From positions 1 through 64,000 of the forward strand of contig JAJVIM010000042.1 of NCBI GenBank assembly GCA_022071955.1: a DNA stretch of 64,000 nt. The letters run 5' to 3'. Shown in pieces: positions 12,726 to 46,430 of the stretch. The position numbers and the translations under genes were made by a program. How positions within the stretch are numbered: position 1 is the stretch's first letter; the number at the start of each line of letters is the position of its first letter. This stretch comes from Anaerolineae bacterium. Lineage in GTDB: Bacteria; Chloroflexota; Anaerolineae; 4572-78; J111. The notes beneath the pieces are model-generated. The model did not search any database, was not told where the DNA came from, and saw only the letters and a program-made list of their open reading frames with translations.

Positions 12726-12854
12726 AGGGAGTGCTACCGAAGCTGCGCCACAGCAACGGGGAATAAAAATTCTTATTTAATCGGTTGGGAGACCCTGTGC
12801 GAAGCGAAGGGCCTGCCCGGCCCGTATTGGGCGGGGTGACACGATTGAGCACCC

Positions 12855-12907
12855 CCTAACTCCTAATTCCTGACTCCTGAATCCTATTTTTAGAGGAGAA
12901 CCTGCTT
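12855..12907 (+). promoter_or_regulatory. CU-rich 5' leader (repeated CUCCU anti-SD-like pentamers) plus SD box CTATTTTTAGAGGAG before the TTG start
   Basis: CCCTAACTCCTAATTCCTGACTCCTGAATCCTATTTTTAGAGGAGAACCTGCTTTTG; a near-identical copy occurs inverted at 18811-18880. Confidence 0.45.
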
Positions 12908-14752
12908 TTGACCGAAGAACTCATTTTTGGGATCGCCATTATCATTGTATTAGGCATATCCGCCCAGTGGCTGGCCTGGCGGCTGCGCCTGCCCTCAATT
13001 TTGCTGCTGCTGCTGGCCGGCTTTCTGGCCGGGCCGGTGACCCACCTGCTCAACCCCGATGAACTGCTGGGCGATCTGCTCTTCCCGGTGGTGTCGGTCT
13101 CGGTGGCGATCATTTTGTTTGAGGGCGGACTCAGCCTCAAGCGCAGCGAAATTCAGACCACCGGCCACGTGGTGCGCAACCTGGTCACGGTGGGGGCGCT
13201 GGTCACATGGGCCATCGCTGCGACGGGGGCCTACACCATTTTGGGGCTGGCCCTGCCGCTGGCCCTGTTGTTTGGAGCAATTTTAGTGGTGACTGGCCCC
13301 ACGGTGATCATCCCGCTGCTGCGCCACGTGCGGGCGGTGGGGTCGGTCAGTTCGCTGGCCAAGTGGGAGGGCATTGTCAACGACCCCATCGGCGCAATTT
13401 TGGCGGTGCTGGTATTTGAAGGCATCGTGGCCGCCGAATTTCAGCAGGCCACAACAACCATCATTTTTAGCCTGTTGGTAGCGTTGCTCATTGGCGCGGC
13501 GTTGGGGGCTATTGGGGCGTACACCCTGGCTTTTTTACTGCGTCGCTACTGGATTCCCGATTACCTGCAAAGTGTGGTTACGTTGATGGTGGTGGTGGCC
13601 GCATTTGCCATTTCCAACATCGTGCAAAAGGAGTCCGGCCTGCTGACAGTCACGCTGATGGGCATTATTCTAACCAATCAGCGCGGCGTCAACATCAAAC
13701 CTATCATCGAATTTAAAGAGAATCTGGGCGTGCTGCTGCTGTCATCGTTATTTATTATTTTGGCGGCGCGGCTGCGGCTGGAAGATTTGGCCCACCTTGG
13801 GCTGCCGAGCCTGCTCTTTTTGGCCGTGTTGATTTTTGTGGCCCGGCCGGCGGCGGTGTTTGTTTCAACCATTGGCTCCGGTTTAAAGTGGCAGGATAAG
13901 GTTTTTCTCACCTGGATGGCGCCGCGCGGAATTGTGGCCGCCGCGGTGACCTCGGTGTTTGCGCTGGAACTGACCGAAGGGGCTGGTTATCACGACGCCG
14001 AACTGATGGTACCGCAGATGTTTGCCATCATTGTTGGCACGGTGGCCGTTTACGGCTTGAGCGCTGCCCCGCTGGGCCGCTGGCTGGGCATCGCCAAACC
14101 CAACCCGCAGGGCGCGCTGATTGTGGGCGCGCATTCGTGGGCGCGCACCATTGGCAGCATGCTCCAGGCCGAGGGAATTAAAGTGCTGCTGGTAGATACC
14201 AACCGCAGCAATCTGTCTGCTGCCCGGTTGGCCGGGCTGCCAACGCTCTATGCCAGCGTGCTGTCGGAGTATATTCACCACGAGGTTGAGTTGGGCGCTT
14301 TTGGCCGGCTGCTGGCGCTCACCCACAATGATGAAGTCAACTCGCTGTCAACCCTCCATTTTGCCGAAGTTTTTGGCCGGGCGGGCGTGTACCAGTTGTC
14401 GCCCAAAAAAACCGAAGATGGCCGCGCCGAAAGTATCTCGCTGCCGCTGCGGGGGCGGTTGTTGTTTAGCAAAGACCTGTCTTACAATGAGTTCAACCAT
14501 CGCATAGAAACCGGCTCAATGATCAAGCGCACGCCCATTACCGGCCAGTTTGCCCTGGCCGAATTCTACGATTATTACGGCGCGTCGGCCCGGCCTTTGT
14601 TTTTAATTGATACGTTGGGCAGGCTGCGGGTGTTTACCGCCGATGATCAGCCGCTTGCGCCCGAACCGGGCGATATTTTGATCAGCCTGGTTGAACCGGT
14701 TGAAACGATGGTCGAGACGGTGGCTGCGCAGGCTGATCCGGCGGCCGGATAG
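12908..14752 (+). CDS. Na+(K+)/H+ antiporter, CPA1/NhaP type, with a C-terminal regulatory domain
   Basis: 12-13 TM helices, conserved CPA motifs, cytoplasmic C-terminal domain; TTG start. Confidence 0.85.
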   Translation: MTEELIFGIAIIIVLGISAQWLAWRLRLPSILLLLLAGFLAGPVTHLLNPDELLGDLLFPVVSVSVAIILFEGGLSLKRSEIQTTGHVVRNLVTVGALVTWAIAATGAYTILGLALPLALLFGAILVVTGPTVIIPLLRHVRAVGSVSSLAKWEGIVNDPIGAILAVLVFEGIVAAEFQQATTTIIFSLLVALLIGAALGAIGAYTLAFLLRRYWIPDYLQSVVTLMVVVAAFAISNIVQKESGLLTVTLMGIILTNQRGVNIKPIIEFKENLGVLLLSSLFIILAARLRLEDLAHLGLPSLLFLAVLIFVARPAAVFVSTIGSGLKWQDKVFLTWMAPRGIVAAAVTSVFALELTEGAGYHDAELMVPQMFAIIVGTVAVYGLSAAPLGRWLGIAKPNPQGALIVGAHSWARTIGSMLQAEGIKVLLVDTNRSNLSAARLAGLPTLYASVLSEYIHHEVELGAFGRLLALTHNDEVNSLSTLHFAEVFGRAGVYQLSPKKTEDGRAESISLPLRGRLLFSKDLSYNEFNHRIETGSMIKRTPITGQFALAEFYDYYGASARPLFLIDTLGRLRVFTADDQPLAPEPGDILISLVEPVETMVETVAAQADPAAG

Positions 14753-16632: not shown

Positions 16633-17355
16633 CTGTTCCAACTCGTCCAGATTACAGCCACGCCGCAGCATTTCCCCAAATTCGGCGGGCAGCTTTTTTT
16701 GCCGCAATTTTTCAACTACCCGTTCCACATCATAGTCCAGCCGAAAATGGCGCACTCTGACGCCAGATTTTTTGAGGGTGAGCAGCGCATACGCCGCGCG
16801 CGGGTCCCCGTCGTCCGGGCGGCCAACGCTGCCGGGGTTGATAAACCACACCCCGCCAACCTGCCGGGCAAACGGCCGGTGCGAATGACCGCACACAATA
16901 ATATCGACGCCGGCCAGTTGGGCCAGTTCTCGCAGCCGGGCATCCGGCGTATCCGGGGTCAGCCCCTCTTTGTTAGAGGCCGGGCTGCCGTGCGTGAGCA
17001 GCACCGAGGCGTGTTTGAAGCGGAGTACAATTTCGCGGGGCAGGCTTTGCAGATAGCGCCGGTTCTTTTTAGAAAGCGACCGGTACGCCCATTCAAACGC
17101 GCGATATTTCAGCGGATGGCGCGGCGCTTTCCACCCTTTTTGGCCAAAGCGCAGCGCCTTTTCATCGTAATTGCCAATAATGCTGACCGCGCTGGCCCGG
17201 CGCAGCAGGCGCACCACCCGGTTAGGGTAGGGATTGTAGCCCACAAAATCGCCCACATACCAGATGGCATCCGGCTGCTGTTGGGCGGCGTGAGCCAGTA
17301 CTGTTTCCAGCGCCGGCAGGTTGGCGTGGGCATCGCCCAAAAGCGCAATTTTCAC
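16618..17355 (-). CDS. Metallophosphoesterase (calcineurin-like)
   Basis: [22 protein letters not shown] motifs; GTG start overlaps the gatA stop (cagttGTGAaa), indicating translational coupling; the longer track ORF (start at 17502) overlaps gatA. Confidence 0.75.
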
Positions 17356-18809
17356 AACTGCGGTTTCTGTTTGTGCCAGTCGGTGGCCTGCTCGTACTGG
17401 TAGGCCACGCGCAAAATGGCGCTCTCGCCCAGGGCCGGGCCGATGATTTGCAACCCCACCGGCAGGTCGTTGGCAAAGCCGCCCGGCACCGAAACTCCAC
17501 ACGCGCCGGCCAGGTTGAGCGTCACCGTCAGCACGTCGCTCAGGTACATTTGCAGCGGGTCGTTGGCCCGTTCGCCAATTTTAAAGGGCGTGCCGGGCGA
17601 TACTCCGGCCACCATCACATCGACCTGCTCAAACGCCTGCTCAAAATCCCGCCGGAGCAGAGTGCGCACCTGTTGCGCCTTCAGATAGTAGGCGTCGTAA
17701 TAGCCGGCCGAAAGGGCATACGTGCCGAGCATAATCCGCCGTTTAACTTCCGGGCCAAAACCGGCCTCGCGGGTTTCGCGGAACATACTCCACATATCGT
17801 CGCCTTCGCGGCGCAGGCCAAAGCGCACGCCGTCGTAGCGGGACAGGTTGGCCGAGGCTTCGGCGGTGGAAATTAAATAATAAGCGGCGATGCCGTAGCG
17901 CGTGTGCGGCAGCGAGACCTCAACGATTTCCGCGCCCAAAGTGGCCAGCCGGTCAATGGCGGTGCGGACGGCGCTTTCAACCCCCGGCTCCATGCCTTCA
18001 ACAAAATATTCTTTGGGCACGCCGATGCGGGTGCCGCGCAGGTCGTCCCCTTTTTTGATGTCGGCGGCGTAGTTGGGTACCGGCGCGTTGAGCGTGGTCG
18101 CGTCGAGCGGGTCCGGCCCGGCGATAGCGCCCAGCAGCAGGGCCACGTCTTCCACATCTTTGCCAAACGGGCCAATCTGGTCCAGCGACGAGCCGTGAGC
18201 GATGGCCCCGTAGCGGCTGACCCGGCCGTAGGTCGGTTTGAGGCCAACCACGCTGCAAAACGAGGCCGGCTGGCGAATGCTGCCGCCGGTATCGGTGCCC
18301 AGCGCGCCCAGCGCCTCATCGGCGGCAATGGCCGCAGCGCTGCCGCCGCTGCTGCCGCCCGGCACGCGGCTGGTGTCCCACGGGTTGTGGGTGATTTTGT
18401 AGGCCGAATATTCAGTGGAGCTGCCCATTGTAAATTCATCGGTGTTGGTTTTGCCCACAAACACCGCCCCGGCCTCGCGCAGTTTGCGCACGGTGGTGGC
18501 GTCAAAAGGCGGCGTAAAGCCTTCCAGAATCTTCGATCCAGCGGTGGTCGGCACGCCCTGGGTGATGATGGCGTCTTTAATGGCCAGCGGGATGCCCAAC
18601 AGCGGGTTGTCTTCGCCGGTGGCGCGACGCTCGTCGGCCAGTTGGGCCATGCGCAGGGCCAACTCCGGCTGCAGGCTGATGTACGCGCCCACCCGGCTTT
18701 CCACGGCGTCGATGCGCTCCAGCACGCTTTCGGTCAGTTCCACGGCGGTAATCTCGCCGTGGCGGAGTTTGGCTTGCGCCTCGTGAATGGTCAGTTGGTA
18801 GAGTTTCAA
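17352..18809 (-). CDS. gatA: Glutamyl-tRNA(Gln) amidotransferase subunit A
   Basis: Amidase signature [12 protein letters not shown]..., full-length similarity to GatA; TTG start preceded by CAGAGGAG. Confidence 0.9.
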
Positions 18810-18810
18810 G

Positions 18811-18880
18811 TAATACTCCTCTGAAAATAGGAATCAGGAGTCAGGAGTCAGGAATTAGGGAAATACTCCTCTGAAAATAG
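18811..18880 (-). promoter_or_regulatory. gatA 5' leader: duplicated SD box (CTATTTTCAGAGGAGTATT x2) flanking a CU-rich block CCCTAATTCCTGACTCCTGACTCCTGATTC
   Basis: Inverted paralogue of the 12855-12907 leader. Confidence 0.45.
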
Positions 18881-18890
18881 AGTTGGTTGG

Positions 18891-19050
18891 CCCTCACCCC
18901 CCTGCCCCCTCTACCCTGCGGGCACTTCGTCCCTGCTGGACGAGGGGGGAAATCTTTTTAGGTGTGTGTTGGGGCGGCAAAGCCGCCCCAACACACACCG
19001 TTAAACTTACTCCCCCTCCCCGTTAACGGGGAGGGGGCAGGGGGGTGGGG
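18891..19050. repeat. Composite GC-rich intergenic element, copy A: C-tract arm, 18-bp perfect-stem hairpin, C5TC4/G4AG5 hairpin, four-G-tract G-quadruplex motif
   Basis: GGTGTGTGTTGGGGCGGC-AAA-GCCGCCCCAACACACACC (18961-18999); CCCCCTCCCC-gttaac-GGGGAGGGGG (19012-19037); GGGG-A-GGGGG-CA-GGGGGG-T-GGGG (19028-19050); same architecture at 26123-26267. Confidence 0.5.
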
Positions 19051-19061
19051 TAACGTAACAA

Positions 19062-19352
19062 TCAATCCAACACCGCTTTTACCCGAAAGCTGCGGTCAGC
19101 GGCGTCCGGGGCGTTGGCCAGCGCGTCTTCGTTATCCAGCGACAGCCGCACTTCATCGGCGCGCATCACGTTAAACAGGGGGATGGCGCTGGTGGTGGGC
19201 GGAATATCGCTGGTGTCGAGTTGCTGCAACATTTCGGCGTATTCCAGCACGCTGGAAAGTTGCTCCTGAAACATCAGTTTTTCTTCGTCAGACAGGGTCA
19301 GCTTGGCCAGTTCGGCGATGGTTTCAACTTCTTCACGGCTAATTTTGGCCAT
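19062..19352 (-). CDS. gatC: Asp/Glu-tRNA amidotransferase subunit C
   Basis: MAKISREEVETIAELAKLTLSDEEK... typical GatC; RBS GGAGGAA before the ATG at 19352. Confidence 0.85.
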   Translation of the reverse strand: MAKISREEVETIAELAKLTLSDEEKLMFQEQLSSVLEYAEMLQQLDTSDIPPTTSAIPLFNVMRADEVRLSLDNEDALANAPDAADRSFRVKAVLD

Positions 19353-23366: not shown

Positions 23367-25076
23367 TTAGCGCCGGTCCTGGCCGTAGTCGGGCACGTAT
23401 TCGGCCCGCTTGATTTTGTTGGTGGGAGTTTTGACAAAAGGCGCGCGCTGTTCGATCACCTTTTGGATTTGTGAAAAAGTGGGCAGTATTTTGTTCACCT
23501 GCCGGCGCACGTCTTCCAAAATTTGCTCGATGTCCTGGGCAATGGTCTCTTCTGATTTGTTCTTTTCGATGCTTTGAATGTAGCTGTAATCGGGGTAAAT
23601 CCGGGCCGTCAACTGGCCTTCCAGTTGTAAAACCAGCGCCTCGTCTACAAACGGCGAAGATTTGAGTTTGTCCTCAATAATTTCGGGGTAAATGTTTTCG
23701 CCGGATGGCCCAATGATGACGTTTTTGGAACGCCCTTTGATGTACAGGTAGCCGTCCGCGTCAATGTAGCCGCGGTCGCCGGTAATCAGCCAGCCATCGG
23801 CGGTGAACACCCGGCGGGTTTCGCTTTCGTTTTTGTAGTAGCCCTGCATCACGTTGGGGCCTTTTACCAAAATTTCACCGATGCCGGTTTCCGGGTTGGG
23901 GTCAATAATTTTTATCTGCACATCCTGAATCGGATAGCCAGTGGATCCCAGCCGGGTGGCGTGGATGGGCGAGCCGGTTACCAGCGGCGCGCATTCGCTC
24001 AGGCCGTACCCAATGGCGTAGGGGATGCCGGCTTCGCGCAGAAACAGTTCGGCTTCAGAGGCCAAACTGGCCCCGCCAATCAGTATCCCCTGCATTTTGC
24101 CCCCAAATACGGCTTTTACCTTGCGGCCAATGAGCCGATACACCAGTTTTCTGGTCAGCGGCAGCTTCACCAGTTGGCGCAGCGCCGGATTGCCGGCAAT
24201 GGCCGGCACCACCTGCTTTTGATAAATCTTTTCAAAGATCAGCGGGACGGCGGCCATAAACGTTGGTTTTACCTGCTGCATGGCGTTGAGCAGCACCTTT
24301 GGCGACGGTTTTTTGTCCATGTAGTACACCGACGCGCCGCAGTACAGCGGCGACAGCAGGGTAATGGTTGAGCCAAAGGCGTGGGCCATCGGCAAAATAG
24401 CCAGCAGCACGCTTTCCGGGGTGATCACTTTCACCAGCTCCGGCCCGCCGATCAGGTTGCTTACCAGATTTTTGTGGGTGAGCATTACCCCTTTGGAATG
24501 GCCGGTGGTGCCGGAAGTGTATAAAATCTGGGCCAGATCGTCTTCCCTGATTTCAATGACCGCCAGTTCCGGGCTGGATTTTTCGCGGACCGGCCGGATT
24601 TTTTCCGGCAGGTGGTGAAGCGGGTTCCACGGATTGTCGCTGGCCGGCGGCTCGCCGAGCGGGGCCAGGCAGGTCAGATCAACAATAATGTTGATTTTTT
24701 CCAGCGAGGGCAGATTGAGGCTGTTGTACAGCGCCTCGTCAATGATAATGGCTTTGGCTTCGGAGTGGTTAATAATGTAATCGATGTCCGGTTCGGGAAA
24801 TTCCGGCATCACCGGCACCACCACCGCGCCCATGGTCATCACACTCAAAAACGCCACAGACCAGTTGGGCGAGTTGGCTCCCACCAGCACCACTTTATCG
24901 TGCGGATTAACTCCGTACCGGCGTAACTGCTGTTGCAGATTTTTTACCCGCTCGCCCAATTCACGGTAGGTAAAGGGCGACTGGCCGGTAAAGGCCAGCG
25001 CCGGCCGGTCGGCGTATTTTTGAACTGCGGCCTCAAAAAATGCATTGAGGGTGAGTTTGGACAGATTTAACGTCAT
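23367..25076 (-). CDS. Long-chain fatty acid-CoA ligase (AMP-binding family)
   Basis: YTSGTTGHSKGV AMP-binding motif, full-length family similarity. Confidence 0.85.
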   Translation of the reverse strand: MTLNLSKLTLNAFFEAAVQKYADRPALAFTGQSPFTYRELGERVKNLQQQLRRYGVNPHDKVVLVGANSPNWSVAFLSVMTMGAVVVPVMPEFPEPDIDYIINHSEAKAIIIDEALYNSLNLPSLEKINIIVDLTCLAPLGEPPASDNPWNPLHHLPEKIRPVREKSSPELAVIEIREDDLAQILYTSGTTGHSKGVMLTHKNLVSNLIGGPELVKVITPESVLLAILPMAHAFGSTITLLSPLYCGASVYYMDKKPSPKVLLNAMQQVKPTFMAAVPLIFEKIYQKQVVPAIAGNPALRQLVKLPLTRKLVYRLIGRKVKAVFGGKMQGILIGGASLASEAELFLREAGIPYAIGYGLSECAPLVTGSPIHATRLGSTGYPIQDVQIKIIDPNPETGIGEILVKGPNVMQGYYKNESETRRVFTADGWLITGDRGYIDADGYLYIKGRSKNVIIGPSGENIYPEIIEDKLKSSPFVDEALVLQLEGQLTARIYPDYSYIQSIEKNKSEETIAQDIEQILEDVRRQVNKILPTFSQIQKVIEQRAPFVKTPTNKIKRAEYVPDYGQDRR

Positions 25077-26074
25077 TGTTGTCTTTCCTGATTGGGTTGA
25101 ATGATTTGACCGGCTTTGAGCTGCTGAACCAGCCGGGCGTTTTCAATGGCGACGGCGGTTTGGTTGGCCATGGCGGTCATTATTTTAATATCGCGTTGGG
25201 TAAAATTCGGCCCATCCAGATTGTTGGCGGCAGTTAATGTGCCAAGAATTGTACCCCGAAAGATAATAGGCACAACCAGCACCGCGCCGGCCTGGTTGTA
25301 CTGCCGGTACTGCTGTACCTCCGGGCTTTCGCGCAGGTCAGGCTGCTCCTTGGGCGAGAGCGCCGGCATTTTCTCGCGAATGACCCAACCGCTCAAACCG
25401 GCCATCATTTGGGCAAACGATATGACCGGTTTGTACTGGTTTGATTCAACATTGGTGACAATATTGGTTATATTTTGCCGGGCCAAATCCACCAGAATCA
25501 GCGCGGCCCGGTGCGCGGGCAGCGTTTGGCTAATGCTGTTTACGGCGTCCTGCAACAGGTCGGCCAGGCTGGTGATGGTAGTTAGCGACAGGCTGAAGCG
25601 GTACAGCGCCTCGGTATCGGCCAGCATGGCGGCGCTTTGCTCAAACAGGCGGCGATAGCGGGCCTCGCTGTATTTGAGCTTTTGCTCCATATTGTGTTTG
25701 TACAGGGCCATTTCGATGGTGCTGGGCAGGTCGCGGTTTTCAAAAGGCTTCAGCATGTAGCCGGCCGGTTCGGTTTGTTTGGCCCGCTCAAAGGTTTCGG
25801 CGTCGGTGTAGGCCGTCATAAAAACAATGGGCGTTACCTGCCGCTGGCGGATTTCCTGGGCCGCTTCAATGCCATCGAGCGAGCCTTGCAGTTTGATGTC
25901 CATCAGAATCAAATCCGGTTTAAGTTCCAGTGTCCGGGTAATGGCTTCTTCGCCACTGGCGACAATGGCCAGTACCGGGTAGCCGTGCTGCTCCAAACTC
26001 AGTTTAATGTTAGCAGCGACAATAAATTCATCTTCAACAATTAATATTCGGGCTTTGGGCATCCTGTTGCTCAT
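25073..26074 (-). CDS. Response regulator with REC and GAF domains (no DNA-binding output)
   Basis: ILIVEDEFIVAANIKL...DLILMDIKL receiver; C-terminal GAF-like region; ATGA overlap with the acyl-CoA ligase. Confidence 0.8.
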   Translation of the reverse strand: MSNRMPKARILIVEDEFIVAANIKLSLEQHGYPVLAIVASGEEAITRTLELKPDLILMDIKLQGSLDGIEAAQEIRQRQVTPIVFMTAYTDAETFERAKQTEPAGYMLKPFENRDLPSTIEMALYKHNMEQKLKYSEARYRRLFEQSAAMLADTEALYRFSLSLTTITSLADLLQDAVNSISQTLPAHRAALILVDLARQNITNIVTNVESNQYKPVISFAQMMAGLSGWVIREKMPALSPKEQPDLRESPEVQQYRQYNQAGAVLVVPIIFRGTILGTLTAANNLDGPNFTQRDIKIMTAMANQTAVAIENARLVQQLKAGQIIQPNQERQQ

Positions 26075-26122
26075 CAGTTTTGGCCAAAACTATACTGAAT
26101 CAATTTGAGAGTTACACTTTTG

Positions 26123-26267
26123 CCCTCATCCCCCCGGCCCCCTTCTCCCTCAGGGAGAAGGGGGAGAAAAGCTTTTTTGGTGCGGTTTTGAGCGGCGAAG
26201 CCGCTCAAAACCGCACCAAGTCAATCGTTCCCCCTCCCCAATTTGGGGAGGGGGTTGGGGGGAGGGG
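26123..26267. repeat. Composite GC-rich intergenic element, copy B
   Basis: GCCCTCATCCCCCCGGCCCCCTTCTCCCT arm; GGTGCGGTTTTGAGCGGC-GAA-GCCGCTCAAAACCGCACC (26179-26217); CCCCCTCCCC-aattt-GGGGAGGGGG (26230-26254); G4 motif 26245-26267. Confidence 0.5.
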
Positions 26268-26329
26268 ACCAGAAAGTGCAATTTTCATTCTGGCTTCAGT
26301 ATAAACGCCAGAAATTTCTATTGTAGTCT

Positions 26330-27578: not shown

Positions 27579-30500
27579 ATGAGTTTTACTGACGAGTGGC
27601 AGTCGCAGACAGCCGGCTCCATTGTTGAGGCGGCCCGATTGGTACCGCGGCTGCCCAATGTTGATCTCAAATTTGAGCTAATGGTGGTTGGGGTGCTCTG
27701 GCCGGCCCGGCAGCGGATTCAGGATTTTGAGGTGGATGCGCTGGGGGCGGTGCAGCAAGTTGTCGGTGGGCGCGCCGTAGCCGTGCTGTGCCAGGTGCAG
27801 CAGTGGAACGACGATATGCTGGCCGCCGCCCGCAGCCTGGCCGCGCTCGCGCCACGCAGCAGCGAACTTGACTCCGAATTGAAAAAGTTGATCGCCTATT
27901 TTAACGCGTTTCCGGTGTTTGCCCGGCAACTGGCCCAAAACGCCGCCGCGCCGCAGCCGGAGGTTGTTGCCCCGGTAACCGCGCCGGCCCCGCCGCGCGT
28001 GCTGCTGGCTTATGTTCAGCGCGATGGGGTTGAGCTGGCCGCGGAAATCCGCCAAACGCTGGAAGCCGAAGGGATTTCGGTGTGGCCGGATTTGGGCCAG
28101 CCGGCCGGCCAGCGCAACTGGTGGGCGCAAATGACCGCGGCCATTGCCCAGGCCGAATATTTGCTGGTGGTGATGACGCCGGCGGCGGCGCAATCCAAAT
28201 TGATTCGCCGCCAGTGGCGGGCGGCCAGCCAGCACGGCACCTGCATTTTCCCGGTTACCCGCGCCGACGACATCGATTACTCGCTGCTGCCGCGCTGGAT
28301 CAGGCAGGTTCACTTTTTCAATTTAAAGCTGGAATGGTCCAAGCTGATTGCCGCCCTCAAACAAAAGTGTGAAACCCCGCGCGTGCCGTTTATGGCCGAT
28401 GACCTGCCGGACGATTTTGTTGACCGGCCCCAGCTCGGCAAGCGGCTGCTTGGTTACCTGTTTGACCCCGTCCGCGAGGAGTCGATCCCCGGCACGGTGG
28501 GGTTATCTGGCCCCGGCGGTTACGGCAAAACCACGCTGGCCCAGATGGTTTGCCATAACGACGACATTCGGCAGGTGTTTGACAACGGCATTTTGTGGGT
28601 GACGCTGGGCGAAACCCCCGGCGATTTGAGCCGCCACGTGGTTGATTTGATCGAAGTGCTTAGCGGCGAGCGCCCCGGTTTTTCCGGGCTTGACGCGGCC
28701 GTGGTGCGGCTCAGCGAACTGCTGGCCGATCGCGAACTGCTGCTGGTCATCGACGATGTGTGGGACGCGGCCCATCTCAAACCTTTTTTGCAGGGCGGCA
28801 GCCACTGCGCCCGGCTCATCACTACCAGAAACATCAGCGCCCTGCCGGTTGATACCAAAATTGCCGAAATTGGCCCCATGCAGCCCGCCGAAGCGGTGTC
28901 GCTGCTGCGCTACCAGCTTCCCGCCGGCGGCGAAAACGAATTGCAGGCGCTGGCCCAGCGCATGGGTGGCTGGCCGCTGCTGCTCAAACTGACCAACGGT
29001 ACTCTGCGCGAGCGGGTGCAAAAATACAAACAGCCGCTGCTCGAAGCGGTTGCCTTTGTCAATCAGGCGCTCGATCAGCGCGGCCTGACCGCGTTTGATG
29101 ACCAGAGCGACGACGACCGCGATTCGGCGGTTACCCAGACCATCACCCTCAGTTTAGACCAGCTCACCCCGGTTGAACGGGAGCGCTTCAACGAGCTGGC
29201 CATCTTTCCGGACGACATCGACATTCCGCAGGCCACGCTGGAAACGCTGTGGGGCGCAACCGCCGGCCTGGATGATTTTGACACCGAAGAGCTGGCCGAT
29301 CACCTGCACGCGCTGTCTCTGCTCTCAAAGTTTGATTTAACCAGCCGCCAGATTCGGCTGCACAAAGTAATGCACAGTTATCTGCGCTACCAGCAGCGCG
29401 AGCAGCTTGTTCAAATTCACCAGCAGTTTTTGCAGGCGCAATTGGCGGCGGTGGGCCGCTGGAGTAACCTGCCCGCCAGCGATGGCTACATGTGGTCGCA
29501 CCTGGCTTACCACCTGCTCAACGCCAACCGCGCCGCCGAACTGCTGCAAACCGTGCAGGAGTTGCCTTACCTGGCCGCCAAAATTCAAATCAAAGGCTCG
29601 CACTACGCCGAGAGCGATTTAAAAACGGCGCAGGCGCTCAGTCCCACCGATGCGGCGCTGGGCGCATTGCGGCGGGCGGTATCGCAGGCCAGCTATCTGC
29701 TGGTGAAAGTTCAAAACCCGGCCGACATCATCAACACCCTGCACAGCCGCATGGTCAACATCCCGGAGCTGGCCGGCATTGTTGACTCGGCCAACTTGCC
29801 CCGGCCGCTCATCACCGCCCGCCACATGCTGCCGGATTTGCCCGATCCCCGGCTCATCCGCACTTTGTGGGGCCACACCACCGGCGTGCTGGATTGCGCT
29901 ATCAGCGCCGATGGCTCCACCACCGTTTCCGTGGACAAAGACAACACCGTGATTGTGTGGGATACCAACACCGGCGCGGCCCGCTTCCGGGTAATGCCCA
30001 GCGACAGCAAAGTGTGGAGTTGCGCGGCCAACGCCGATGGCTCGGTGGTGGTGTACGGTGCGGCCGATGGCCGGGTAACCCTGCTCGATACGGCCGCCGA
30101 GGCCGTGAAAAAACTGTGGAACGCCCACGAGGCCGGGGTCATCAGTTGCTGCATCAGCGCCGATGGCAAGCTGGTGGTCACGGCCTCTAAAGACAAAACC
30201 CTGAAAATTTGGGATGCGGCCACCGGCTCGCAGCGAGCCGTACTGGTGGGCCACGAGCGCACCGCCACCCGCTGCGGCATCAGCGCCGATGGCCGGGTGG
30301 TGGTTTCGGCCTCTAACGACGGCACGGTCAAAGTGTGGGATGCCGCCACCGGTGCGGAACGCCGCACCTTTGTGGTCGGCGCAGTTGATTCCGGGGTCGA
30401 TCAGCTTACCTTTTACAGCCAGCGCGACATCAGCTTTGGCTGCGCCATCAGCGCCGACGGCCGGATGGTAGCCGGGGCATCGTCGGCCGGCATGTTAAAT

Positions 30501-31649
30501 GTGTGGGATGCCGCCACCGGCGAGCTGAAATTTGGCACAATGGTCGATAAACGGGGCGTGTACGGCCTGGCGCTCAGCAGCGACGGCAGCCGGGTGGTTA
30601 CCGCCTCCAGCACCGGCGCGCTCAGCGTGAGAGACACCGCCGGCACGTTGCTGATGCGGCTTGAGGACCACACCCGCATTGTGAATGCCTGCGACATCAG
30701 CGCCGACGGGCTGCGCATCGTTTCGGCCTCTGATGATAAAACGGTAAAAGTGTGGGATGGCGGCAGCAGCGCCGCCGCCAGTTTGGCCGAGGTGCCGTAC
30801 AAACTCGCGGCCCAAACCTGCGCCGTCAGCGCCGATGGCCGGCTGGCGGTCACGGCGCTGGCCGATAATTCAGTAAAAGTGTGGGATGTGGCCAGCGGTG
30901 CGGATTTGGTCACCCTGCGGGGGCACACCCGCCGGGTCAATAGCTGCGCCATCGGCGCCGACGGCAAGCTGGTGGTTACGGCCTCGCAGGACCAAACGGC
31001 CATCGTTTGGGATGTTGCAACCGGCCAGCCGCAGCACACGCTGGCCGGCCACAGTTGGTCGGTGAATGGCTGCGCCATCGGCGCTAACGGGCTGTTGCTG
31101 ATGACCGCCTCAGACGACAGCACCCTCAAAGTGTGGGAAACCCGCACTGGCGAAGAACGGTTTACCCTCACCGGCCACAGCCGGGCCGTAAAAAGCTGCG
31201 CCATTAACAGCAACGGGGCGATGGCCGTTTCCGCTTCCGGCGATGGCACGCTGCGCCTGTGGAATCCGCATACCGGCGAGCAGCGGGCCGTACTCACCGG
31301 CCACACCGCGCTGGTCAACACCTGCGCCATCAGCGCCGACGGCAGCACCGTGGTCTCGGCGTCGCTGGACAAAACGCTCAAAGTGTGGAATACCCGCCCC
31401 GCCGCGGAACGGCTCACGTTGGCCGGCCACGATGCCAGCGTTACCGGCTGCGCCATCAGCGCCGACGGCCGGGTGGTGGTTTCTGTTTCTCGGGACAAAA
31501 CGCTCAAAGTGTGGGATGGCCGCTCCGGGGCGTGTTTGGGCACGCTGTTTGTCGATGAACCGCTGCACGACTGCGCCTGCTCGGCCGACGCCGGCACCAT
31601 TGTGGCGGTGAGCAGCGGCGGCGTTTATTTTTTGAAACTGGTGCAATAA
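27579..31649 (+). CDS. STAND NTPase, copy 1: N-terminal helical domain, divergent TIR, NB-ARC (Apaf-1-type AAA+), about 12-13 WD40 repeats (1356 aa)
   Basis: Walker A GLSGPGGYGKTTLAQ, Walker B LLLVIDDVWD, TTRN, GGWPLLLKL (GxP) motifs; TIR-like block RVLLAYVQRDG...; C-terminal half is repeated ...SADG..V(K/L)VWD... units. Confidence 0.85.
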   Translation: MSFTDEWQSQTAGSIVEAARLVPRLPNVDLKFELMVVGVLWPARQRIQDFEVDALGAVQQVVGGRAVAVLCQVQQWNDDMLAAARSLAALAPRSSELDSELKKLIAYFNAFPVFARQLAQNAAAPQPEVVAPVTAPAPPRVLLAYVQRDGVELAAEIRQTLEAEGISVWPDLGQPAGQRNWWAQMTAAIAQAEYLLVVMTPAAAQSKLIRRQWRAASQHGTCIFPVTRADDIDYSLLPRWIRQVHFFNLKLEWSKLIAALKQKCETPRVPFMADDLPDDFVDRPQLGKRLLGYLFDPVREESIPGTVGLSGPGGYGKTTLAQMVCHNDDIRQVFDNGILWVTLGETPGDLSRHVVDLIEVLSGERPGFSGLDAAVVRLSELLADRELLLVIDDVWDAAHLKPFLQGGSHCARLITTRNISALPVDTKIAEIGPMQPAEAVSLLRYQLPAGGENELQALAQRMGGWPLLLKLTNGTLRERVQKYKQPLLEAVAFVNQALDQRGLTAFDDQSDDDRDSAVTQTITLSLDQLTPVERERFNELAIFPDDIDIPQATLETLWGATAGLDDFDTEELADHLHALSLLSKFDLTSRQIRLHKVMHSYLRYQQREQLVQIHQQFLQAQLAAVGRWSNLPASDGYMWSHLAYHLLNANRAAELLQTVQELPYLAAKIQIKGSHYAESDLKTAQALSPTDAALGALRRAVSQASYLLVKVQNPADIINTLHSRMVNIPELAGIVDSANLPRPLITARHMLPDLPDPRLIRTLWGHTTGVLDCAISADGSTTVSVDKDNTVIVWDTNTGAARFRVMPSDSKVWSCAANADGSVVVYGAADGRVTLLDTAAEAVKKLWNAHEAGVISCCISADGKLVVTASKDKTLKIWDAATGSQRAVLVGHERTATRCGISADGRVVVSASNDGTVKVWDAATGAERRTFVVGAVDSGVDQLTFYSQRDISFGCAISADGRMVAGASSAGMLNVWDAATGELKFGTMVDKRGVYGLALSSDGSRVVTASSTGALSVRDTAGTLLMRLEDHTRIVNACDISADGLRIVSASDDKTVKVWDGGSSAAASLAEVPYKLAAQTCAVSADGRLAVTALADNSVKVWDVASGADLVTLRGHTRRVNSCAIGADGKLVVTASQDQTAIVWDVATGQPQHTLAGHSWSVNGCAIGANGLLLMTASDDSTLKVWETRTGEERFTLTGHSRAVKSCAINSNGAMAVSASGDGTLRLWNPHTGEQRAVLTGHTALVNTCAISADGSTVVSASLDKTLKVWNTRPAAERLTLAGHDASVTGCAISADGRVVVSVSRDKTLKVWDGRSGACLGTLFVDEPLHDCACSADAGTIVAVSSGGVYFLKLVQ

Positions 31650-34600
31650 ATGGCTTTTGAACAACAGTGGCGCGAGCAAGCGCATCATTGGATTGCCGAG
31701 TGCGTGCAGTTGGCCCAGGCCAACCCCGATGGCGAACTGGAATCGGTGCTGGCCGCGGTGGCGGTGCTGTGGCCGCTGCGCGAGCCGGTGCAGCAGTTTG
31801 ATCTGGAGGTCATCGCCGCAGTGCACCAGCAAGCTGGCGGCGGCTCAAAGTTTGTGCTGCGGCAGGTGCAGGCCTGGGATGATGGCGATCTGCTCAAAAC
31901 CGCCCGCCGCCTCCGCCGCGATCTGGCCCAAAACCCCGATCTGCTGGGCGCGGTCAACCGCCTGCTGGAGCAGTTTGGCGCCAAAGCCGAGTTTGATCGG
32001 CTGGCCGCGGCCGGCCAACCGACCCCCGCGAGCGCCGTGGCCGCGGCCCAATCGCGCGTGTTTATTTCGTATGCCCGCAGCGACGGCGAAACCGAAGCCC
32101 ACCATCTGCGCCAGCGGCTGGAGGCGGAAGGGATTGCAGTGTGGCAGGATCGGGTCAAAATGGTCGGTGGCCGCGATTGGTGGCTGCAAATTACCGAGGC
32201 GCTCGATCAGGTGGAGTTTTTGCTGCTGGTAGCTACCCGCGGCGCGCTGCAATCAGAAGTTGTCCACAAAGAGTGGCGCTACGCCCGCCAGCAAGGGGTG
32301 TGCGTGCTGCCCATCCAGGTGCAGGCCGATCTGCCGGAAGAGCTTATCCCCCGCTGGATGCGCCGCGCCCATTTTTACAACATCGAGCAGGAGTGGTCGC
32401 GGCTGATTGAAAATTTGAACACGCCCTGCCAAACCCCGCGCGTGCCGCACATGGTCGAAGAACTGCCGGATGGCTTTGTGTCCCGGCCGCAGCTTCTTGA
32501 CCAGGTGGCGGCGCAGTTGGTCAGCGCCAGCGGCGAGCCGGTGGCGGCAACGGTGGCTCTGCACGGGCTGGGTGGCTACGGTAAAACGTTGCTGGCCCGG
32601 TCGGTGTGCCACAGCGACGCGATTCGGCAGGGCTTTGACGACGGGATTTTGTGGATGACGCTGGGTGAAACCCCCGGCGACCTGACCGAGCGGGTGGTTG
32701 ATCTGATTGAGGTACTCACCGGCGAGCGGCCGGCCTTTGCCGGGCTTGACGCCGCCGAAACGCGGCTGGCCCAATTGTTGGGCGAGCGCAATTTTTTGCT
32801 GGTCATCGATGATGTGTGGCAGGCCAGCCATCTGGCCCCATTTTTGCAGGGCGGCCCGTGCTGCGGCCGCATCATTACCACCCGCAATCTGTCAACGCTG
32901 CCGCCGCAGGCCCAGCCCATCGAAGTTGGGCCAATGACCCAGCCCGAAGCAACGGCTTTGCTCGGCCGGGGGCTGCCGGCCGGGCCGGAAAAACCGCTGC
33001 ACGATCTGGCCGAACGGCTGGCGTACTGGCCGCTGCTGCTTGGCCTGGTGAACGGTACACTGCGCGACCGGGTGAATAATGACAACCAGCCGCTGGCCGA
33101 TGCGCTGGTTTACGTGAATAAAGCGCTCGACAAGCGCGGCCTGACTGCGTTTGATGCGGTCAATACCGGCGCTCGCGATCAGGCCGTAAGCCACACCCTC
33201 GGTATGAGCCGTGATTTGCTGCTACCGGATGAACTGGCCCGTTTTAACGAGCTGGCCATCTTTCCGCCGTATGCCGCCATTCCGCTGGACACGCTGGCCG
33301 TTTTTTGGGGCGCAACCGGTGGTCTTGATGCCGCCGCCATCGAAGCCCTGTGCCAGCGCCTGTTTCAGTTGTCGCTGTTGGCCCGGTTTGATATTCCCAG
33401 CCAAACCATCAAAGTGCATTCAATTTTGCGCAATTATCTCACCACCGAGCACGCCGCCCAGTTGCCGGCGCTGCACCAGAAATTTTTGGATGCCTTTGCT
33501 CAAAACCTGCCCGCCTGGGCCGCGTTGCCCCATGCCAACGGCTATTTGTGGAATCATCTGGCCTACCATCTGGTTAACGCTGGCCGCAGTGACGAGTTAG
33601 TCAGCACTGTGAAAGATTTGAGCTATCTGGCGCACAAAACATTTTTGCGCTCGGCCAACGCCGCCGAGGCCGATTTGCTGGCCGCCCGCCGGGTTGCGCC
33701 GGCAGACGCGGTTTTGGCCAAGTTGCATCTCGCCTTTTCACAGGCCAGCCACCTGCTGGCCGAGTGCAAGTCACTGGCAGAAGTGGCCGGCACGCTGCAC
33801 AGCCGGCTGGCTTTTGCGCCGCAACTAGCGCCGCTGGCCACCGCCGCCGAGGTTGGCTTGCCGCGGCCGCTGCTCACCGCCGGCCAACCCCTGCCCGATC
33901 TGCCGGCAGCCAGTTTGCTGCGGGCGTTTGCCGGCCATAATACCGCGGCGCTGGGCTGCGACATTGATGATGCCGGGGCCAGCGTGGTGTCTATTGACCG
34001 CGCGGCGCAGGTTAAAGTTTGGGACGCCCGGACCGGCGCGGAGCGGCTGACTCTGGCCGGCCACCAAACGCTGGGTAACTGCTGCGCCATCAGCGGCAAC
34101 GGTGCGGTGGTGGTGTCCGCTGCCTGGGATGGCGCACTCAACGTGTGGGACGCTGCTACCGGCGAACTGCGCCACGCGCTATCGGCCCACGAGGCGCCCA
34201 TTTACGCCTGCGCCATCAGCGCCGATGGCTCCGTTATTTTGTCGGCTTCCAAAGATAAAACGGTAAAAATTTGGGATGGCGTAACCGGCGCGCTGCGGTT
34301 TACGTTGAGCGGCCACGAGCGAACGGTGACCGGCTGCTCGCTCAACGCCGATGGCGCGCTGGCGGCCAGTTGCGCGCTGGACGGCACGGTAAAACTGTGG
34401 CATACGGCCAGCGGCCAGTTGCAGGCTACCCTCACCGCTTATGAACTGCGCGATTACAGCCCGGTGGCCGATTTAACCTTTACCTCCACCGCCTCATCGC
34501 TGTTGAGCTGCGCCCTCAGCGCCGATGGCCGCACGCTGGTGTCAACGCTGCCCAACGGCGCGCTCAAAGTGTGGGATGTGCCCACCGGCGCGGAACGCTG

Positions 34601-35705
34601 CCTGCTGCGCGGCCACACCGGCTGGGTTGAAAATTGCGCCGTCAGCGCCGATGGCCGGCTGCTGGTGTCCGCGGGGAATGATAAAACTCTCAAAGGCTGG
34701 GATGGCGTAACCGGCGACCTGCTGTTTACGCTCAAAGGCCATTTACGCGCGGTTGCCGCCTGCGCCATTAATGCTGATGGCACTATCATCGCCTCGGCCT
34801 CGCATGACCGGTCGGTGCGGTTGTGGGATGCCCGGGCCAGCCAGGAGCCTGTTGCCACCGAAGTATACAGTTCGCCAACGCAGGCGTGCGCCAGCAGCGC
34901 CAGTTTGCTGGCTTTTGGCGTGGCCGAAGAGTCCGTGCAACTTTTGGAAATCGCCACGCAGCAGCCGGGGCCGTTGCTCAGCGGCCATCAGCGGCCAATA
35001 TTGGGTTGCGCGGTGGGCCGGCGACTGGCGGTAACGGCTTCGCAGGATCATTCGCTCAAAATTTGGGATGCCGCCACCGGCCGCCAACTGCATTCGCTCG
35101 GCGGCCACGCCTGGGCGGTGAATGATTGTGCATTGACCCCCGATGAAACGCGGGTGGTTTCCGCCTCCGATGACAGCACCCTCAAAATTTGGGATACCGC
35201 TACCGGCGCCGAGTTGCGCACGCTGGCCGGCCATATCCGCGGGGTAAACGGCTGCGCGGTTAGCCCCGATGGCGCGTTTGTGGTTTCGGCCGCGGCGGAT
35301 GAAACGCTCAAAATTTGGGACTTGTCCACCGGCGCGGAGCGGTTGACTCTGGCCGGCCACACCGGTCCGGTGAATCAGTGCGCCGTCAGCCCCGATGGCG
35401 GGTTGATCGCTTCCGCCTCGCGGGACGGCACGCTCAAAATCTGGCGCAGTCAGAATGGGGCGGAGGTCATCACTTTAACCGGCCACACCGGTTTTGTGAC
35501 CGGCTGTGCGTTCCACCCCGGCGGCGAATTTCTGCTGTCGGTTTCCAGAGATGAAACCATCAAACTGTGGCGGATTGGCACCGGGCAGGGCGTGGCTTCG
35601 CTGCGGGTTAGCGGCGGCCTGCACAACTGCGCCTGGGCTTCCGACGGTCGGCTCGCGCTGGTGGCCGGGGCCAGAGGCGTTTACTTTTTGCGGGTTATTT
35701 GGTGA
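31650..35705 (+). CDS. STAND NTPase, copy 2: N-terminal helical domain, canonical TIR, NB-ARC, WD40 (1351 aa)
   Basis: TIR signature RVFISYARSDGETEAHHLRQRLEAEGIAVWQD; Walker A GLGGYGKTLLAR; LLVIDDVWQ; WD40 repeats; start codon abuts the copy 1 stop (TAAATG). Confidence 0.85.
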   Translation: MAFEQQWREQAHHWIAECVQLAQANPDGELESVLAAVAVLWPLREPVQQFDLEVIAAVHQQAGGGSKFVLRQVQAWDDGDLLKTARRLRRDLAQNPDLLGAVNRLLEQFGAKAEFDRLAAAGQPTPASAVAAAQSRVFISYARSDGETEAHHLRQRLEAEGIAVWQDRVKMVGGRDWWLQITEALDQVEFLLLVATRGALQSEVVHKEWRYARQQGVCVLPIQVQADLPEELIPRWMRRAHFYNIEQEWSRLIENLNTPCQTPRVPHMVEELPDGFVSRPQLLDQVAAQLVSASGEPVAATVALHGLGGYGKTLLARSVCHSDAIRQGFDDGILWMTLGETPGDLTERVVDLIEVLTGERPAFAGLDAAETRLAQLLGERNFLLVIDDVWQASHLAPFLQGGPCCGRIITTRNLSTLPPQAQPIEVGPMTQPEATALLGRGLPAGPEKPLHDLAERLAYWPLLLGLVNGTLRDRVNNDNQPLADALVYVNKALDKRGLTAFDAVNTGARDQAVSHTLGMSRDLLLPDELARFNELAIFPPYAAIPLDTLAVFWGATGGLDAAAIEALCQRLFQLSLLARFDIPSQTIKVHSILRNYLTTEHAAQLPALHQKFLDAFAQNLPAWAALPHANGYLWNHLAYHLVNAGRSDELVSTVKDLSYLAHKTFLRSANAAEADLLAARRVAPADAVLAKLHLAFSQASHLLAECKSLAEVAGTLHSRLAFAPQLAPLATAAEVGLPRPLLTAGQPLPDLPAASLLRAFAGHNTAALGCDIDDAGASVVSIDRAAQVKVWDARTGAERLTLAGHQTLGNCCAISGNGAVVVSAAWDGALNVWDAATGELRHALSAHEAPIYACAISADGSVILSASKDKTVKIWDGVTGALRFTLSGHERTVTGCSLNADGALAASCALDGTVKLWHTASGQLQATLTAYELRDYSPVADLTFTSTASSLLSCALSADGRTLVSTLPNGALKVWDVPTGAERCLLRGHTGWVENCAVSADGRLLVSAGNDKTLKGWDGVTGDLLFTLKGHLRAVAACAINADGTIIASASHDRSVRLWDARASQEPVATEVYSSPTQACASSASLLAFGVAEESVQLLEIATQQPGPLLSGHQRPILGCAVGRRLAVTASQDHSLKIWDAATGRQLHSLGGHAWAVNDCALTPDETRVVSASDDSTLKIWDTATGAELRTLAGHIRGVNGCAVSPDGAFVVSAAADETLKIWDLSTGAERLTLAGHTGPVNQCAVSPDGGLIASASRDGTLKIWRSQNGAEVITLTGHTGFVTGCAFHPGGEFLLSVSRDETIKLWRIGTGQGVASLRVSGGLHNCAWASDGRLALVAGARGVYFLRVIW

Positions 35706-46331: not shown

Positions 46332-46426
46332 GATGAAGGATGACCCCCCTTGCAGGGGGCAGGGGATGAAGGATGAGGGACAATCCGTTTATTGGCTGAT
46401 TCGTAATTCATCATTCGTAATTCATC
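46332..46426. repeat. Micro-repeats in the menA upstream region: 12-bp direct repeats GATGAAGGATGA flanking a 21-bp GC hairpin, then a 14-bp tandem ATTCGTAATTCATC x2
   Basis: Read directly. Confidence 0.5.
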
Positions 46427-46430
46427 ATTG

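Follow-up and report, generated by a model that had tools for sequence, protein, structure and literature searches.

BoxC of Escherichia coli and other Proteobacteria, later called the PIT element or TMECO, belongs to the class II (purine-motif) type of intrastrand triplex motifs (TMs) (Holder et al., 2015, PMC4666352). It has been known since the early 1990s (Bergler, 1992; Hoyne and Maher, 2000, 2002), without a function or a spreading mechanism. E. coli MG1655 carries 23 TMECO copies, all intergenic and without strand bias, including five inverted pairs that each combine two subtypes. In vitro, a TMECO oligonucleotide formed a triplex, with 18 imino signals in nuclear magnetic resonance (NMR) spectra that excluded a G-quadruplex (G4), and 'intergenic change' between E. 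coli strains was observed at 39% of TMECO sites, versus <1% of controls (PMC4666352). Cyanobacteria are also rich in G/C-rich motifs (PMC4666352). Here, two intergenic loci, copy 1 (18890-19050) and copy 2 (26122-26267), were analyzed in a stretch of 64,000 nucleotides (the window) from contig JAJVIM010000042.1 of an Anaerolineae bacterium (Chloroflexota). Taking all observations as a whole, both loci are best explained, and probably so, as copies of a selfish, dispersed TM doublet that would be maintained or moved in trans by an endonuclease of the DUF559 family.

The two copies, of 145-160 bp each, had one common architecture and showed 78% column identity across their entire length in a pairwise alignment. 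Their anatomy is that of two inverted TMs, with the third-strand arms outward, that flank a perfect, GC-rich hairpin of 18-20 bp. Within each TM, a loop separates a pyrimidine block from its complementary purine block, which is followed, after 2-3 nt, by a G-rich block with the mirror image of its sequence. The following features were assigned:

18890-18949, minus strand: left TM of copy 1, with an arm, GCCCTCACCCCCCTG, complementary to the third strand
18950-18960: linker of copy 1, with T-run (AAATCTTTTTA)
18961-18999: central hairpin of copy 1, perfect over 18 bp (18961-18978 / 18982-18999), GGTGTGTGTTGGGGCGGC-AAA-GCCGCCCCAACACACACC
19012-19050, plus strand: right TM of copy 1, CCCCCTCCCC-GTTAAC-GGGGAGGGGG-CAG-GGGGGTGGGG
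26123-26164, minus strand: left TM of copy 2, CCCCCTTCTCCC-TGA-GGGAGAAGGGGG-CCG-GGGGGATGAGGG
26165-26176: linker of copy 2, with T-run (AGAAAAGCTTTT..); terminator-like call on the plus strand only
26177-26219: central hairpin of copy 2, perfect over 20 bp (26177-26196 / 26200-26219), TTGGTGCGGTTTTGAGCGGC-GAA-GCCGCTCAAAACCGCACCAA
26230-26267, plus strand: right TM of copy 2, CCCCCTCCCC-AATTT-GGGGAGGGGG-TTG-GGGGGAGGGG
26091-26303: extended palindrome around copy 2, TATACTGAA ... TTCAGTATA

The right TMs of both copies contained 10 perfect triads each; the A was faced by T in copy 1 (loops of 6 and 3) and by A in copy 2 (loops of 5 and 3). The left TM of copy 2 contained 12 perfect triads (loops of 3 and 3). 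The left TM of copy 1 was degenerate, with 7-8 triads and an oversized loop of 30 nt that, parsed by hand, held two mini-hairpins between the stem halves CCCCCTC and GAGGGGG. An 18-nt insert in this loop was also present in an orthologue of copy 2 (locus L250).

An initial annotation of the same DNA had described a near-identical architecture for the two regions, and each feature that it listed was recovered in both: a C-tract arm GCCCTCA(C/T)CCCCC.G.CCCC starting at 18890 and 26122, a T-run (CTTTTTA in copy 1 and CTTTTTT in copy 2), a perfect-stem hairpin with a GCGGC-RAA-GCCGC tip (18 and 20 bp, respectively), CCCCCTCCCC-loop-GGGGAGGGGG hairpins at 19012-19037 and 26230-26254, and the G-tracts G4 N1 G5 N2 G6 N1 G4 at 19028-19050 and 26245-26267. 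Both copies also lay, as it had stated, between co-directional minus-strand genes. Copy 1 was located between gatC (19062-19352, minus; protein MCG3212181.1) and gatA (17352-18809, minus), and copy 2 between genes for an amidohydrolase (from 26330, minus) and a response-regulator/GAF protein (25073-26062, minus). Overlooked at that stage was the inverted repeat formed by the outer C-arm and the terminal G-tracts (20 nt and 95% complementary in copy 1; 26 nt and 73% complementary in copy 2), which makes the entire element a single long, imperfect palindrome with its centre in the loop of the middle hairpin. The C-arm and the 'G4 motif' correspond to the third-strand blocks of the two TMs, with the 'G4 motif' comprising the purine block and the mirror block of the right TM.

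A chance origin of this common architecture is excluded. The 3' pattern CCCCCTCCCC-N4-7-GGGGAGGGGG-NN-GGGGGG occurred twice in the window, versus 0.00 expected from 100 dinucleotide shuffles, and the 5' arm pattern had three matches, versus 0.36 expected from shuffles. A TM finder recovered three perfect motifs of 10-12 triads in the window and none in 100 shuffles. Among the perfect hairpins of the 64 kb, the central ones of the two copies were the longest two. In single-stranded form, both copies were predicted to fold into a closing stem with three hairpins, at -122 and -110 kcal/mol as RNA and at -66 and -62 kcal/mol as DNA, with z-scores of about -10 and not one shuffled sequence folding equally well. 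Blast, pattern, and motif scans all indicated that the window holds only two copies.

A third occurrence had been suggested at 46344. The sequence fragment is indeed there, as a mini-hairpin C6-TTGCA-G5-CA-G4 (46344-46365, plus strand) with the 11-nt direct repeat ATGAAGGATGA on either side, but it fell under any threshold for the family and gave no blast match to copies 1 and 2; it is possibly a degenerate solo motif, a candidate whose membership is undemonstrated. In the spacer that contains it (46333-46428, between two minus-strand genes), the ATGAAGGATGA repeat resembled a target duplication and was followed by two tandem copies of TTCGTAATTCATCA.

Class II intrastrand TMs are defined by stems of 6-15 nt, loops of 1-6 nt, and a third block that mirrors the purine block in G.G, A.A, or T.A contacts. 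Three segments of the window (19012-19050, 26230-26267, and 26123-26164) had all of these properties, and, as in the described family, the elements were intergenic, multicopy, and without orientation preference. The strict TMECO pattern, CCCTCNCCC N3-6 GGGNGAGGG N3 GGGNGAGGG, had no match in the window, and the window elements are therefore a variant rather than TMECOs sensu stricto. The window unit belongs to the BoxC/PIT/TMECO type in a broad sense. It shares with BoxC/PIT/TMECO (Bergler, 1992; Hoyne and Maher, 2000, 2002; PMC4666352) the three-block unit, a 3-nt loop, and a third strand of the ..GTGAG.. type, an invariably intergenic location, multiple copies that often form inverted pairs of two subtypes, and the replacement of intergenic DNA between close strains. 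It differs from it in its blocks (C5TC4/G4AG5 and C5TTCTC3, versus C3TCNC3 in TMECO), in the additional long central hairpin and linkers, and in its Chloroflexota host. Doublets of the window type, moreover, had their arms outside (68 arms-outside versus 1 arms-inside inverted doublets in the DNA that was fetched), whereas four of the five MG1655 pairs have their arms inside (PMC4666352, Table 1). No match at the elements reached the gathering score of any Rfam covariance model, and permissive thresholds yielded only generic hairpin noise; tRNA and tmRNA genes were absent from the window.

The initial annotation had regarded the elements as a genome-specific family of the REP/BIME or MITE type. 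Their nature as a repeat family of this type was borne out, but genome specificity was not, as the arm-plus-hairpin unit was found in at least eight phyla. A scan for the hairpin tip plus CCCCCNCCCC showed that >120 metagenome loci carry the composite; the matches listed were mostly full composites with an unchanged order of modules. A scan of a genome collection for the 5' arm returned at least 120 loci, with hosts in Chloroflexota (many orders), Cyanobacteria, Armatimonadota, Acidobacteriota, and Gemmatimonadota, as well as two Proteobacteria, a Leptospirales metagenome-assembled genome (MAG), and a Bipolaricaulota MAG. In nearly all listed hosts, the arm was followed by a CTCTCCC-loop-GGGAGAG hairpin and, very often, by an inverted second unit. 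Only 11 viral contigs carried the arm, and phages are not an obvious vector. These results extend the unit far beyond Proteobacteria and Cyanobacteria (to Chloroflexota, Armatimonadota, Acidobacteriota, Gemmatimonadota, Deinococcota, and others), and the arms-outside doublet with a central hairpin, in Chloroflexota, is new as a variant of the BoxC/TMECO type.

The central hairpin module was also found alone and within other composites, and in some metagenome lineages (L179, L210, and L163; L186, L241, and L203) the composite formed the core of repeats of 400-450 bp with outer inverted repeats of their own, such as TGTTGAATCTCGTAAAGTCGTATCAC. This sharing of modules among composites indicated that the elements are mosaics, like bacterial interspersed mosaic elements (BIMEs). 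BIMEs, too, are mosaics of palindromic units in alternating orientation with other conserved motifs in between; their unit sequences differ, and the window elements gave no evidence of sites for integration host factor (IHF) or gyrase. The 400-450 bp repeats themselves consisted of nested, onion-like palindromes. In a Ca. Ribeiella danica locus (L037, 3260-3475), the left half of a composite (the arm, the hairpin, and one half of the central stem) was partially duplicated in tandem beside a complete copy.

Most family members had ..GCGAAGC.. at the tip of the central hairpin. The heptamer d(GCGAAGC) is said to have been described by Hirao and co-workers as an extra-stable DNA mini-hairpin. In the composites this tip caps a stem of 18-30 bp, and copy 1 has AAA instead of GAA; the mini-hairpin may be of relevance. 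In four loci (L152 at 3568, L168 at 4153, L188 at 10090, and L243 at 1664), the GAA/TTC loop of the central hairpin was flipped relative to the two motif subtypes, as inversion of the loop through intrastrand template switching in a perfect palindrome would produce.

The kind of constraint on these sequences was informative about the level at which they might act. Across 54 distinct copies of the central hairpin, 98.1% of cells were paired, with about 0.5% G-U, and all 14 of the 14 variable pairs were altered on both sides. Two-sided change that is poor in G-U is characteristic of a palindrome that both strands require rather than of an RNA helix. A full mirror block followed 218 of 777 C/G hairpins, versus 72 ± 7 in permutations, and this third block changed together with the purine block, in keeping with the mirror rule, in many patterns (GGGAGAAGGGGG/GGGGGATGAGGG and GGGGAGGAGAAGGGGG/GGGGGATGAGGAGGGG among them). 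In 20 full composites, the triad positions were satisfied in 470 of 477 cases (98.5%), versus 150 of 205 arm-to-arm matches; the fit of each arm to its own hairpin under the purine-motif triplex rule is better than its pairing with the other arm. Copy 2 and a paralogue with 88% identity (L187) differed by one coordinated change in all three blocks and by two compensated changes in the central stem, and the L250 orthologue showed one compensated change from G-C to A-T. Duplication mechanisms create no mirror repeats. Constraint of this kind suggests that the elements act at the level of DNA and not of RNA, and that the selected form may be single-stranded DNA folded as a hairpin plus triplex. 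Covariation by the mirror rule is rare sequence-level evidence of selection on a DNA triplex fold.

The same observations bear on the possibility that the elements act as RNA, with the transcribed multi-hairpin fold either terminating transcription or, in the manner of REPs and BIMEs, shielding upstream mRNA from 3' exonucleases, and thereby setting the gatC:gatA and amidohydrolase:regulator ratios. The location of both copies between co-directional genes, one of them within the gatC-gatA pair, the extreme RNA folds predicted for them, and a T-rich tract 3' of the central hairpin in many relatives would all fit such a role. The near-absence of G-U pairs from the stems does not, and covariation of the mirror block has no rationale in RNA, in which purine-motif triplexes do not form (Semerad and Maher, as cited in PMC4666352). 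For termination in particular, which the initial annotation had proposed, no U-run was present 3' of the hairpins on the gene strand, and the only terminator-like call was on the opposite strand. Orientation relative to genes showed no bias (16 tandem-sense, 22 tandem-antisense, 10 convergent, and 9 divergent, approximate counts from crude calling of long open reading frames (ORFs) without a GC3 filter), and elements also occupied spacers between divergent genes. The E. coli homologues are cited as having neither promoter nor terminator activity (Hoyne and Maher, 2002, in PMC4666352), and strains about 99.7% identical on both flanks manage without copy 1. An RNA-level role was accordingly judged unlikely, and an assignment as intrinsic terminators was supported by neither a U-run nor the orientation.

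The initial annotation had also noted G4 potential. In a regulatory G4, the four G-tracts would fold as DNA or RNA and modulate transcription or translation. The motif itself is present: both runs have four G-tracts with loops of 1-7, and nowhere else in the window did the quadruplex regex with G>=4 match. Each G-tract nevertheless has a perfectly complementary C-tract inside the element, adjacent to it, with which it was paired in all predicted folds; Watson-Crick partners would thus outcompete a G4 here. The A/T interruptions obeyed the mirror (triplex) rule, which a G4 does not require, the opposite strand reads as a C-tract, and the NMR data on the E. coli homologue fit a triplex and exclude a G4 (PMC4666352). 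The G4 potential thus stands as a sequence pattern, while a G4 role is weak and very improbable; the G4 and terminator readings are both poorly supported.

Dispersal of the composites was evident among relatives of the source genome. Of 170 pairs of similar composites, counted among those with one motif or more, 164 had unrelated flanks, and dispersed paralogues were 90-98% identical (up to 98% over 177-275 nt) between unrelated flanks. In sister strains, the segment of the gatC-gatA spacer that contains copy 1 (18827-19060) was replaced by an unrelated spacer of 162 nt; this was seen in six contigs, both flanks of which were 99.6-99.9% identical to the window. Copy 2 was 100% conserved in the same MAG. 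The alternative spacer had no second copy in any fetched sequence and is therefore not another repeat family. In L250, which was 98-99.5% identical rightward, homology to the window stopped exactly at 26091, where the extended palindrome has its left edge. Close strains thus showed raised intergenic variability, as in the described TM family, at two loci only. Many metagenome contigs terminated within the elements. Dispersal, observed in the relatives, would extend to the source genome as well, and the elements mark hot spots of intergenic replacement in those relatives and presumably also there. In practical terms, the elements break metagenome assemblies and generate strain-level differences within operons.

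Genes bracketed by two TMs were searched among the fetched loci. Two homologous small ORFs were found, in a Roseiflexaceae MAG and in Paramagnetospirillum, both of which encode DUF559 proteins (PF04480, E ~ 1e-37). A third DUF559 gene in the fetched loci, from the Bipolaricaulota MAG, also abutted a TM, so that all three of the three were hugged by the motif. Independent sampling, starting from the DUF559 protein, yielded 19 contexts: seven MAG or metagenome loci, the E. coli locus, and 11 records of plasmids or chromids (cyanobacteria, Alpha-, Beta-, and Gammaproteobacteria, and Deinococcus). A strict TM lay within 100 nt of the DUF559 gene in 10 of the 19 contexts, versus 5 of 35 ORFs located >600 nt away (Fisher p = 0.004), and 17 of the 46 TMs in the sampled loci adjoined the DUF559 gene, versus 9.8% expected (p = 8e-7). 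By eye, a TM or a short or degenerate lineage-specific version of it was present beside the gene in all 19 contexts. In an incomplete library, no publication that links DUF559 to these repeats was found, and the company that the unit keeps with this one small nuclease family is new.

The geometry of these units tracks lineage and equals that of gene-less doublets. In Chloroflexota and Deinococcus, the order was TM(-), gene, TM(+), with the arms outside; an Anaerolineae MAG (L277) with this TM(-)-gene-TM(+) order had an arm nearly identical to the copy 1 arm. In Proteobacteria and cyanobacteria, the order was TM(+), gene, TM(-). Because TMs beside DUF559 share the lineage-specific geometry of gene-less doublets, the doublet is most likely a gene-less derivative of a TM-DUF559-TM unit. 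The window composites would then be non-autonomous, copied as a unit into intergenic DNA, and comparable to REPINs or MITEs. Each of the two loci holds a single copy of this DNA repeat of the Anaerolineae bacterium, which is quasi-palindromic and non-coding. DUF559, a Vsr-like PD-(D/E)XK endonuclease (YcjD in E. coli), may act on them in trans by way of the hairpin/triplex folds of single-stranded DNA. Effects on neighbouring genes, such as those of a very stable four-way-junction fold within the gatC-gatA transcript, would be by-products.

In E. coli MG1655, the DUF559 gene ycjD lies 168 nt from TMECO #9, at the fabI region, where BoxC was first described. Of 5426 complete E. coli genomes, 3378 have this single-copy gene. 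For the strains named in the TMECO count table, phylogroups are those to which we take them to belong. On this assignment, TMECO counts are 19-30 in A/B1/C strains, 1-2 in B2, and 6-15 in D/E/F (PMC4666352, Table S1). The fabI-sapF site is occupied by ycjD in phylogroups A, B1, and C and by eefRABCD in others (PMC12817139). ST69 and ST182 have ycjD although their phylogroups otherwise lack it.

By analogy, the association of TMs with DUF559 and the ycjD-linked TMECO counts suggest a partnership like that of REPINs with RAYTs. As in REP/REPIN-RAYT systems, short palindromic units occurred mostly as inverted intergenic doublets, a small and usually single-copy nuclease gene had the same repeats on both sides, and repeats were few in lineages without the gene. 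There are also differences: the window units begin with GCCCTCA and carry no GTAG/CGTC tag, TM units have a mirror third block, and the same unit sequence recurs across many phyla, unlike REPINs. The gene bracketed by TMs encodes a Vsr-like PD-(D/E)XK protein (DUF559, PF04480) instead of an HUH Y1 transposase; no Y1 transposase was among the genes found to be bracketed by TMs, in a comparison confined to those genes and not extended genome-wide. MITEs (miniature transposable elements with inverted repeats) such as ERIC, Correia, and RUP resemble the window elements in being non-coding, multicopy, and 100-200 bp long (the window elements being <300 bp), with terminal inverted repeats and long stem-loop folds within transcribed intergenic regions, but the window elements showed neither a target-site duplication nor a known DDE-transposase parent. 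The TM-DUF559-TM unit is only a candidate for the autonomous parent of such MITE-like doublets.

DUF559 genes were also found within operons, between ureC and ureE (L273, 4001-4405), between sufB and sufC (L284, 2465-2875), at two sites of the hpa operon in Deinococcus (L286 and L287), and between hsdS and hsdR (L269). Such insertions, the presence of DUF559 in a doublet spacer or even within a TM loop (L277), and the far larger number of doublets than of DUF559 genes would be expected if TM doublets were homing or insertion targets of a mobile DUF559 gene, with the repeats themselves spreading or persisting by replication slippage, gene conversion, or a structural role in the host. That explanation is improbable: it leaves near-identical composites at unrelated loci unexplained, and the far lower number of TMECOs in E. 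coli lineages without ycjD suggests that the repeats depend on the gene.

Several observations weigh against a selfish doublet served by DUF559. The window contains no DUF559 gene. DUF559 has no demonstrated activity, and its only solved relative, 3HRL, has no assigned function. The strict TM finder placed a motif beside only about half of the DUF559 genes, the remainder depending on inspection of short or degenerate motifs. In E. coli, the correlation between ycjD and TMECO follows phylogeny and represents few independent events, and phylogroups D, E, and F, mostly without ycjD, keep 6-15 TMECOs. The central GCGGC-RAA-GCCGC hairpin was sought in DUF559 units and was absent from them; since it is present alone and elsewhere, the composite is a mosaic and not simply a DUF559 unit from which the gene was deleted. 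Copies 1 and 2, only 72-78% identical, do not show recent movement in the source genome. The difference in the gatC-gatA spacer is a replacement rather than a clean insertion, and target-site duplications were absent from the window copies, L187, and L037. A stable triplex was, moreover, not detected in vivo in E. coli (PMC4666352).

Beyond the two loci, it is a tentative but serious possibility that BoxC-type repeats and DUF559 endonucleases form an unrecognized cross-phylum repeat-nuclease partnership, akin to REPIN-RAYT, in which a PD-(D/E)XK nuclease recognizes the hairpin/triplex fold and of which the window composites would be gene-less members. If true, this partnership would account for the BoxC puzzle, now 30 years old, for an arm, GGGGTGAGGG, that is conserved across phyla, and for the genomic instability at these sites, and would give DUF559/YcjD a role. 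It would also be a second case in which a nuclease, domesticated or selfish, has a repeat population of its own, and make the purpose of triplex repeats addressable by simple experiments in E. coli.

Other features of the window were observed alongside these elements. A pyrimidine heptamer-repeat leader, CCCTAA..CCTGACTCCTGA(CTCCTGA)TTCCTATTTTNAGAGGAG, lay directly upstream of the start codons of gatA (18810-18862, minus) and of a Na+/H+ exchanger gene (12853-12897, plus), and recurred in L187 (1058-1110) and L250 (about 835-870). Its CUCCU repeats resemble an anti-Shine-Dalgarno (SD) sequence and could sequester AGGAG; upstream of gatA, the leader was accompanied by a 19-nt direct duplication that includes the SD. 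The Na+/H+ exchanger gene (TTG at 12908) is also preceded by a conserved GC-rich leader (12785-12850), with a similar sequence in L187 (985-1055), an unrelated metagenome contig. This GC-rich leader had no Rfam match at the gathering score and may be an unannotated riboswitch-like leader. Two very large genes (27579-31649 and about 32000-35600) contained WD40-type repeats of 126 nt (42 aa) in >20 copies at the DNA level. The only Rfam gathering match in the window was a ribosomal protein L10 leader (RF00557, 74.5 bits) at 2675-2841.

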